Source: Laetmonice hystrix
Taxonomy: Eukaryota
Length of the DNA stretch: 64,000 nucleotides
Direction: 5' to 3'
Assembly: GCA_965235115.1 (NCBI GenBank)
Contig: OZ249436.1
Location: 32,180,001 to 32,244,000, forward strand
Position numbers and translations under genes: made by a program
Notes under the pieces: model-generated
Told to the model about the DNA's origin: nothing
Seen by the model: the letters and a program-made list of their open reading frames with translations, nothing else
Database searches by the model: none
Shown: one piece after another, positions 53,397 to 55,638 of the stretch
Position numbering within the stretch: position 1 is the stretch's first letter
How the letters are laid out: the number at the start of each line of letters is the position of its first letter

Positions 53397-54048
53397 CTGA
53401 AATCACCAGATGGTGGAGGTCCACGAGCATTCGGAGCCATTCCGATGACTCTGCCTGTGCACCCGTTATATCACCTCAGTGGGACTGGGTGGTCTTCAAC
53501 CACCAGACACCCTCGCCCACCGCAGACCAGTTTACAAAAGAGAAACTCGATTTCCTAGCCCTTGAAATTAGAAATGCTTCAGATACTTTGTTTTATTAGG
53601 GATTAAGTTTTCTTCCTTTTCAGTGCCATGTATTATTATTGATCATAATTTAGCGTCCACGACGAGATGAGATCATCGTACAATCCGTTAATCAAGGTAA
53701 TTATTGCAATTACATATAAACTGTCTGCCCTCAACCTGAATCACTGTTCGAGGAGACCATCATTAAGACATATAAGGGAAACGTTATGGATTCATAATTG
53801 TCATCATTAGATAAAATGTCTTGTAAATATTGATTTCTTATGCTACAAGCAATTGTATTTTGAAAGATTTCCACATGCAGAATCAACGCATCTCTACATG
53901 AAGATCGAAAAAGTTTAAAACTGAACTCTTCCAGTGAGTACTGATCTAATGTGTCACCTATCGTCAAATCGGTGCGAAAATGTTGTATAGGAAATAGGTA
54001 GTCAATATTTTATAGGTACTAGTGATTAGGCCCCTATGTACCCAACCT

Positions 54049-54406
54049 GACTGTATTTTTCTTTTGAAATGCACGGGCATCAGGGGTAACCCAATTACTT
54101 TGACAATGTCCCTAAAGAGAAAAGTTGTATAGTCCTCTCCAGGAATCGAACCCCGACCCCAAGATTACTGCACCCATTCGCATAGCATAAGGTGTCGACA
54201 TCCATGCCCACTAGGCCACCGCCACTCCCCTAAAAAAGGAGCTTTGGTGGTCGAGCAGGACAATGGACCCTCCCCCTACACACATCGTCCGAAATGAGAC
54301 GGAATCCATATTTTCCTAGATAGAGCTACACATGATTTCTACCGAACATTGACTGTTAAGGTAATCCTGGCACTGGCGTAGACTGTATTTTTCTTTTGAA
54401 ATGCAC
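54049..54406 (-). mobile_element. permuted tRNA-derived Pol III retroelement (332-bp unit plus 26-bp terminal redundancy)
   Basis: minus-strand A box TGGCCTAGTGG (54208-54218) and B box GGTTCGATTCC (54142-54152); T6 immediately upstream of the head; identical 26-bp direct repeats 54049-54074 and 54381-54406; 21-bp flanking duplication. Confidence 0.6.
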
Positions 54407-54436
54407 CTATATACCCCACCTGACTGGAGTGATTAG

Positions 54437-55638
54437 TTAGGGGTTCGATCCTGGCCGTTGGTGTCGCTCGAGGGTCTGGTGTCAGGTAACCCTTCTCGAG
54501 GGGCGAAGCCCCTCGGGAAGGGTTGCCTGACGCCAGACCCGAGGGCGACACCAACGACCAGGGTCTAATGCCTTTATAAACCAAATTTTATACTGAATAA
54601 AACACTTGACACTATATTTACTCGTACTTTTTCGCGTTTCTCGACGTGCACACCGCCCTTTGGCTTCGGGTCGTCCATTAAAATCCCAGTAAGGCTCAGT
54701 TCTAACGAGCCCTGAAGCATGTTCAGGCTTTGGTAAACGTCGGCAGACATCATAGACAGGTCACGTGATTGATAACCCTCCCTCCATGGAGGTAGGTATA
54801 TGGCAAGATAACCCCCTCCGGTGACGTCACAGCAGAGCGTCACATTATGCTTGTTCAGGGCCCAACGTTGTGTAGTCTATCGACTGCGTATGGATAACGA
54901 AGTGCGACGGATATACCACGGCTAAGCGGTTTATAAAAAACCTTTATAAACCGCTTAGCCGTGGTATATCCGTCGCAGTCGATGGACTACACAACGTTGG
55001 GCCCTTAACGAGCATACTGTGACACTCTGTGACGTCACCAGAGGGGATTATTTTGCCATATACCTCCCTATGGAGGGTTATCAATCGAACATGTGACCTG
55101 TCTATGACGTCTGCATAAATTAAAAGTTCACCAACTCCAGCTCCGCCGACGTTTACCAAAGCCTGAACATGCTTCTGGCTCTAACTGTCGAGTATAGATA
55201 AGGAGCTACGGCCTGGAACTGAAGATTGGCTGTATCTTGCCAACATTACGTTAGATTGTGTTTGTTTACATGTCGAAGCGAGCCTTGTCATCGCACCTGC
55301 GAGCTACTGTCAGCTCACAAGGTGGGTGGGGCATAAAGACGTCTCCACCAATAAGATTAGAGGTTTGAAAATTTGCATATGGGTCGAAAGCATTATGGGA
55401 TGTCGAAGGATGACACCACGGAATGGCCACGGGAAGGCGGAACAGGCATGCACAAACAAACGCCAAAAAATGCGAGTAAATGTAGTGTCAAGTGCTTTAT
55501 TTAATATAAAATTTGGTTTATAAAGTCATCAGACCTTGGCCTTTGGTGGTCACCCTCGGGTCTGGCTTCGCCCCTCGGGAAGGGTTTTCTGACACCAGAC
55601 CCTCGGGTGACCACCAAAGGCCAGGATCTAACCCCTAA
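54437..55638. mobile_element. 1.2-kb foldback element (resembles non-autonomous Crypton-type palindromic repeats)
   Basis: ttaggggttcgatcctggcc / ggccaggatctaacccctaa ends; arms are inverted copies around the centre cggtttataaa-aaacc-tttataaaccg (~54940); right arm carries extra sequence at ~55180-55420. Confidence 0.7.

Follow-up and report, generated by a model that had tools for sequence, protein, structure and literature searches.

The window, the whole stretch of 64,000 nucleotides of Laetmonice hystrix DNA analysed here, carries on its minus strand an inserted element at positions 54049..54406, made up of 1.08 units of a repeat family with a unit length of 332–335 bp. With the unit numbered on the minus strand (u1 = 54380, u332 = 54049), the insertion reads u307–332 followed by u1–332, and the period of 332 given in the first-pass annotation is confirmed by identical 26-mers at 54049–54074 and 54381–54406. 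A Pol III head of the tRNA type begins at u150; its A box (TGGCCTAGTGG, 54208–54218) and B box (GGTTCGATTCC, 54142–54152), recognised from the sequence and by a pattern scan, both lie on the minus strand where they had first been placed. The putative Pol III start is the A at u150 (54231), 13 nt ahead of the A box, and it is adjoined by a T6 run (54232–54237) that would act as terminator and forms the end-to-start linker; the direct abutment of T6 on a purine start, AGGGGAG, is as originally described. The 3′ arm of a terminal stem of the linear RNA (54238..54259) pairs with 54208–54230 in folding, and transcription would have to continue past an internal T4 (54120–54123) for the priming site to be included in the RNA.

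The fixed 3′ end of the insertion, TACAGTC at 54049..54055, is common to element and target and is the priming microhomology. By alignment, two stretches of the minus strand resemble a Penelope-like element (PLE) of the same genome, referred to here as the partner: 54056..54109, upstream of the priming site, matches the 3′ end of the partner, and 54345..54391, which includes the internal unit junction, matches it downstream of the priming site and lies outside what a first pass of reverse transcription (RT) copies. Also on the minus strand, a 34-bp unit of a target repeat, M, lies downstream of the insertion (54022..54055) and a partial M unit lies upstream (54406..54436). At 358 nt the window copy lacks the length for a source gene: the half that lies downstream of the priming site occurs in it only upstream of its promoter. 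Nested fold-back repeats stand beside the insertion, at window positions 54439–54573 (a 66-nt hairpin) and 54711–55178 (a long imperfect palindrome), matching 8 and 7, respectively, of the 138 regions sampled below, and they seem to represent a MITE-like fold-back family carrying the M repeat.

A DNA search of the organism's own genome (627 Mb, 35 contigs) gave at least 147 family matches with 91–100% identity among the best 40 of 1,361 candidates, which were the ones scored. Exact patterns recovered 2,194 internal unit-to-unit junctions genome-wide and, with a wider pattern, 3,919 unit ends, the difference giving a lower bound of roughly at least 1,700 insertions. From 138 merged regions (536 kb), 383 runs were parsed, and 265 insertions remained after removal of 100 same-junction duplicates and of 18 runs that the end of a locus had truncated. 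The loci were chosen by score, M pattern and end patterns, mostly on contigs C1 and C2, so that the sample is non-random; a near-complete subset of C1 up to 23.87 Mb (58 insertions) has the same shape as the full sample. The 3′ end falls at u329–332 in 226 of 265 insertions and at u324 or later in 235, reading ..AAAAA-TACAG, and the 5′ ends are scattered over the unit by 5′ truncation. The variable permutation points anticipated in the first-pass annotation are thus absent, variation being confined to the 5′ end; the opposite expectation, of fixed ends in every copy, fails as well, as only the 3′ end is fixed. The head and the upstream half form one family with linked markers, and the alternative of two independent families is not borne out.

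Insertions range in size from less than one unit to 12 units, and copies longer than one unit with variable 5′ ends, which had been predicted, are common (95/235). A unit intact from start to terminator, for which at least 515 nt are needed, is present in 56 of 235 insertions and in 17 of 58 in the C1 subset. The arrays are star-like, with a median within-array divergence of 0; rare variants within them occur in single units (143), in all units (10) or in a subset of units (1), and the haplotype switches inside some arrays (L080, L083, L189). Two rare variants tested genome-wide gave 63 matches at 17 places and 20 matches at 4 places, and six further arrays of these lineages, 80A and 171C, were added. 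As both are also found at other loci, the use of private variants as a test was abandoned, and rare variants common to several loci are by themselves no proof of single-template synthesis. A pile-up of 5′ ends at u1–8 (22 cases), considered as a possible trace of the RT running into its own primer, should be read with the knowledge that short upstream pieces escape BLAST and that TAC is common to the target. Overall, the family is young and recently active. Arrays of internally deleted or altered units were also observed (L201:2477–4036 and L128), each array being uniform; the alterations are units of ~204 nt without an A box, and a variant unit junction, GATAC.

The M repeat is 34 bp long, TACAG[T/G]CAGGTGGGGTATATAGGNNCCTAATCAC, gives 831 matches in the genome when ≤1 mismatch is allowed, and follows directly after the element 3′ end in at least 906 copies (exact pattern, whole genome). 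Out of 30 loci chosen by M alone, among which four pairs overlap, 27 carry the element and M stands alone in three. The possibility that M is a PLE-type tail or a part of the element was ruled out: it stands alone at those three loci, which identifies it as target rather than tail, and 68 of 235 ends were not scored as M and lie in other satellites or unique DNA, where the element likewise ends at (C)AC^TACAG. This target consensus is drawn from both joints: of 235 terminal 3′ joints, 199 have TACAG and another 11 have TACA, and in 71 of 235 insertions CAC is found directly at the 5′ joint or shifted one base ahead of it. Where the target reads TACAGGC in place of TACAGTC, the target letters are retained, which is expected if the primer is target DNA annealed to the RNA, and priming by microhomology in target-primed RT, as first proposed, is supported by the TACAG common to 3′ end and target. 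The 21-bp pair with two mismatches at 54033–54053 and 54406–54426, which lies in the downstream and upstream M units, respectively, does exist, but its interpretation as a target site duplication (TSD) does not hold, as the two copies are pieces of a minisatellite with hundreds of matches and flank duplications of ≥4 nt are lacking in 202 of the 234 insertions tested. The few long flank matches are probably copies inside repeat arrays. A tail of 30–40 bp from a second RT start, an optional feature of PLEs, was not found among the insertions, which have the single 3′ end described above. At several loci (L002, L007, L019, L026, L068, L086, L089), a larger dispersed repeat with the same flanks encloses M arrays that hold several nested insertions, and modules are reshuffled between copies.

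With the consensus A-box/B-box pattern there is one match in the window and none in 100 shuffles, whilst Rfam and ARAGORN gave no tRNA or other match in the unit. The start at u150 leaves a trace in the insertions: 22 have 5′ ends at u150–159 vs 3 at u140–149 (p = 1.6e-4), six of them exactly at u150, and the first-pass stop rate is 0.057 per 10 nt over u210–150 vs 0.027 just beyond. This edge fits run-off on a linear RNA that would begin at u150, although the end of the terminal stem could contribute. In multi-unit copies the edge is weak (7 vs 1, p 0.07), and there it could reflect a free 5′ end on later passes or the terminal-stem end. Additionally, A-run expansions occur at the priming site in L049 and L209 and an inverted 5′ piece in L036, features that, with the u150 edge, support what would be an RNA template. 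The caveat that the T4 run could end transcription early stands, yet T4 is kept in 209 of 214 insertions and is spanned by every longer copy. A marine metatranscriptome gave 0 records, which has no bearing on expression.

The pairing of the RNA ends was recovered: when monomers from three arrays were folded in the Pol III frame, all three had the stem in their minimum free energy (MFE) structure, but with an unremarkable total energy that is no better than that of shuffles (z −0.68; about 0 for Pol III-framed monomers). The stem arms read TCC/GGGA in 110 insertions, TTCC/GGAA in 13 and TTCC/GGGA in 8, a covariation that is probably one compensatory event. A shared stem around the priming site lies 1–3 kcal/mol above the MFE when forced, and is not the MFE structure in the main young haplotype. 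The absence of a hammerhead from the element is confirmed, with the CTGANGA core in 1 of 265 insertions, and hammerheads with covariant cores were not found on either strand of the unit; nor did a search by eye and with Rfam for an HDV-like fold around the head give any Rfam match inside the unit, and a ribozyme of some other kind may yet be present.

The partner was identified through a GIY-YIG search of the genome, in which most of the 124 matches belong to one family with a 759-aa frame. This frame combines a reverse transcriptase domain (RVT_1, E 6.7e-10) with a C-terminal GIY-YIG domain (E 7.2e-8), and an upstream frame contains NADAR (E 2.5e-24) and a GDSL/SGNH-like match below the cut-off. 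The partner also has a TATA-like box and, 767 nt past the priming site, a type I hammerhead of minimal form, read by pattern; Rfam gave no match in the hammerhead region, and 5′ ends relative to the hammerhead are visible in three copies only. Units of 5.58 kb are arranged head-to-tail in uniform arrays of up to seven (~39 kb) with array-specific periods of 5569–5606 bp, examples being L242:810–5311 (contig C4) and L251:3854–9901 (contig C8). The RT, C-terminal GIY-YIG, linker motif, hammerhead and tandem layout are all features of EN+ PLEs. The linker motif, CGKRGCECC at residue 561, is of the CX2-5CxxC kind that fits Neptune/Nematis (PMC8557442) and points to a probable placement of the partner there. 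The protein is apparently intact and young, judging by the 759-aa frame in many copies; a PDB sequence search with the ORF returned nothing significant, and the homologues that a further search gave are proteins without names.

Exact partner 3′ ends number 120 genome-wide, and among 19 terminal ends 14 are at AAATAAAA-TACA and four lie in the M repeat. One satellite site has been hit by both the partner (L243) and the small element (L174). Partner and unit share 78% identity over u272–314, upstream of the end, and downstream of it, across the tandem junction of the partner, the local alignment score is 48, vs a mean of 22.7 and a maximum of 30 in 200 shuffles. A search for the shared motif beyond the two families gave 24 matches, whose listed letters resemble variants of the element or the partner. 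Because of the same end motif, the same targets, the same array layout and the sequence similarity to either side of the priming site, the partner is taken as the likely driver, and it is very probable on these grounds that the small element is a Pol III retroelement dependent on a PLE. A 3′ end in common with a PLE of the same genome, 5′ truncation, tandem copies and the target of the partner are features of a non-autonomous PLE, and the tests run agree with classifying the small element as such, with mobilisation by the PLE protein proposed.

A second PLE family was also noted, with a 789-aa frame of RT and GIY-YIG and an upstream Pro/Thr-rich frame (L253, C17:23500–33400); it clusters near contig ends, also on C2, C6, C15, C18 and C21, and gave no real match to the small element. 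At L255:1–984, upstream of a PLE copy, there is a 328-aa open frame whose product resembles a membrane transporter.

The model that we consider probable as a whole is a non-autonomous PLE with a tRNA-type Pol III promoter, the RNA of which would be ligated into a covalent circle and copied by rolling-circle RT. Pol III would transcribe a genomic copy of at least 1.55 units from u150, read through T4 and stop in the T-run, giving an RNA of ~334 nt with paired ends. The 3′ end of this RNA would be tailed with U and some A to 5–7 nt, and in part of the molecules a host ligase would then connect it with the 5′ end, steps that are suggested by the linker. The RT/GIY-YIG protein of the partner would then bind the motif spanning the internal site, nick DNA at (C)AC^TACAG and prime on the internal UACAG(UC) of the RNA through pairing of 4–7 nt. 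Copies made from a linear RNA would extend no further than u150 and so measure ≤183 nt, whereas on a circular RNA the RT would go round, giving 5′-truncated arrays of 1–12 identical units that would become new source copies. The Pol III start and stop and the ligation would replace the role that the hammerhead has in the partner and in retrozymes. The permuted appearance of the element follows from the partner RT starting inside the RNA, and since the first RT pass copies the 5′ side only, and the RNA needs both sides of the priming site, a source gene must be longer than one unit. The initial reading of a ribozyme-free Pol III retroposon with its head in mid-unit, copied by target-primed RT from a circular or end-joined RNA, is therefore supported, the circle being deduced from DNA.

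Several points weigh against the whole model. The Pol III 5′ end would need processing before RtcB-type ligation, since RtcB, which requires a cyclic phosphate and a 5′-OH, did not work on a 5′-triphosphate (PMC6789731); a 5′-p/3′-OH ligase would be the alternative. Not every array is homogeneous: 11 of the 82 pairs of adjacent linkers are unlike, and the haplotype changes within some arrays. Moreover, according to the available text of one study, the PLE examined in vitro needs no priming homology (PMC11167929), as opposed to the 4–7 nt of microhomology here.

The linker, defined as the stretch between the 3′ arm and AGG, was scored in 125 insertions and offers a view of the joint itself. It is 5–7 nt long, and non-T bases occur almost only from position 4 on: positions 1–3 have 2 in 375 bases, about the background of 0.6%, and positions 4 and beyond have 21 in 384, 17 of which are A. 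This is an enrichment of A of about 29-fold over background (T>A 0.16%, p 3e-17), and no such pattern was found in the other T-runs of the unit. Odd linkers occur on several haplotypes, the commonest being TTTATT. Of 82 pairs of neighbouring linkers within arrays, 71 have the same sequence, whereas identity between insertions of one 12-marker haplotype is 0.42, and six of eight arrays with a non-T linker repeat that linker at every junction. TTTATAT, which is no terminator sequence, is in all 11 junctions of one C3 array and otherwise in one array only, which has a different period, of 338; T6, T7 and TTTATAT linkers are found in different arrays of lineage 80A, and T6 and T7 linkers in lineage 171C. 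TA slippage could account for some of the linkers with A, TTTATT excepted, and some linker repeats may represent one lineage. The simplest reading would be that each template acquires its linker a single time, from templated U's and an untemplated U/A tail, and that the linker is then copied many times, as in rolling-circle RT of a ligated circle, and the idea that the junction carries an end-joining signature is supported by this pattern.

The best-surviving alternative, though an unlikely one, retains the same partner but keeps the RNA linear, with the RT jumping from the 5′ to the 3′ end and adding untemplated bases, either in repeated jumps or in one jump followed by amplification of DNA or cDNA. 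It makes an RNA ligase unnecessary, the stem would keep the RNA ends close, the u150 edge is weakly visible in multi-unit copies, and untemplated bases at jumps are known for the R2 RT. Repeated jumps should, however, reset the linker on each pass, and yet most neighbouring linkers are the same and an odd linker can occupy an entire array, as in the 11 of 11 junctions of the C3 array; the version with one jump requires a second, unseen amplification step, and the 5′ AGG, retained in nearly all junctions, also speaks against jumping.

Slightly less likely again is that the same partner copies long linear read-through transcripts of arrays, which lengthen by unequal crossing-over of DNA. Multi-copy PLE mRNAs have been proposed in the accessible part of PMC11167929, rare variants are common to several arrays, and arrays in the larger repeats are clearly reshuffled at the DNA level (L002, L068, L089). 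The restriction of A enrichment to linker positions 4 and beyond is left unexplained by this account, as are the differing linkers in sister arrays of one lineage. Stepwise DNA duplication also predicts variants shared by a subset of units, for which the count is 1 vs 143 in single units, and read-through alone could not sustain 12-mers, because internal priming and 5′ truncation would shorten every daughter. Lastly, whilst rolling-circle DNA transposition, as in Helitrons and Replitrons, gives tandem copies that lack a TSD and have one end fixed and the other variable, all of which fit here, an HUH-nuclease element of this kind carrying a Pol III gene by chance is highly improbable, as the fixed end and target match those of the RT/GIY-YIG element, the 5′-end edge lies at the Pol III start and the linker has the pattern of an RNA tail.

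Set beside known systems, the small element under the circular-RNA model has parts in common with several. Ordinary tRNA-derived SINEs have the head at the 5′ end, a simple-repeat tail, a TSD and a LINE driver. The small element shares with them the internal A/B-box promoter and a 3′ part in common with its driver, but its head is internal to the unit, it has its own terminator, no A-rich tail and no TSD, its driver would be a PLE, and its source gene needs copies longer than one unit. Schistosoma's Sm-alpha and Sj-alpha repeats are of about this size and also have a tandem layout. They are SINE-like, tandem and dispersed, with a tRNA-related part, as here, but contain a hammerhead (PMC2770079), and neither a partner element nor a terminator-to-start junction was found described for them in the available text.

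Metazoan non-LTR retrozymes have a type I hammerhead in each unit (PMC7761336; bioRxiv 10.64898/2026.07.22.740005), and are likewise non-coding tandem units of similar size, from monomers to multimers, for which a circular RNA, rolling-circle RT and a PLE driver have been proposed in the portions of these papers at hand. The small element likewise consists of non-coding units, a few hundred nt long and in tandem, but is not a retrozyme by the defining type I hammerhead, its RNA ends being set, as proposed, by Pol III start and stop. Retrozyme repeats carry no conserved motif pointing to a driver, as far as the accessible text goes (PMC7761336), whereas here the driver is identified via shared priming-site sequence and shared targets.

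Among PLEs, the non-autonomous Chlamys elements such as MRC1 are algal, members of the clade with an N-terminal EN and mostly without hammerhead (PMC8557442). MRC1 resembles the small element in being non-autonomous, with a 3′ end similar to that of an autonomous PLE and multicopy head-to-tail insertions; the available text mentions for Chlamys PLEs neither a Pol III promoter nor joined Pol III ends. In the autonomous Poseidon PAc of Anolis, an A/C-rich loop within the RNA is where RT begins, sequence 3′ of this point is required, the target is AT-rich, and two RT start sites give an optional 30–40-bp tail, according to the part of the report available (PMC11167929). The internal RT start and tandem layout are alike, whereas the small element has one start site, 4–7 nt of microhomology and a (C)AC^TACAG target. 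Circles have been proposed before as PLE templates (PMC4209133, in the text available), and U6/L1 chimeras show that a U-tailed Pol III RNA can be ligated before retrotransposition, with a T-run at the junction (PMC6789731, likewise), although two different RNAs are joined there, whereas here the joint would link the head and tail of a single RNA and belong to the life cycle. Helenus and Ajax are LTR elements derived from small RNAs, with no mention of Penelope in the available text of PMC10886601. A ribozyme-free, PLE-driven Pol III element was not found in the literature covered, nor was any SINE-type element with a PLE as driver or any formation of circular RNA from Pol III ends; outside of this coverage lay Repbase, Dfam and most subscription journals; a prior description could exist in Repbase, Dfam or the supplementary lists of PMC8557442 or the bioRxiv paper.

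How PLEs and animal retrozymes make tandem copies of more than one unit is an open question, and the driver of retrozymes has so far been inferred from co-occurrence and pLTR trees. With an RNA of 334 nt, an apparently intact partner, a defined target and a linker that would tag the template, the rolling-circle model is directly testable. There is a reasonable, if not strong, likelihood that the family represents a self-sustaining class of small circular RNAs, in which a Pol III transcript is tailed and ligated by host enzymes, without ribozyme or splicing, and amplified by Penelope rolling-circle RT, each array recording the tail of one RNA molecule; the same logic, with ribozyme-cut circles of 5.6 kb and arrays to ~39 kb, would apply to the autonomous partner. 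If true, this would be a SINE-type element driven by a PLE instead of a LINE, and the ends of Pol III transcripts would provide a route to circular RNA.
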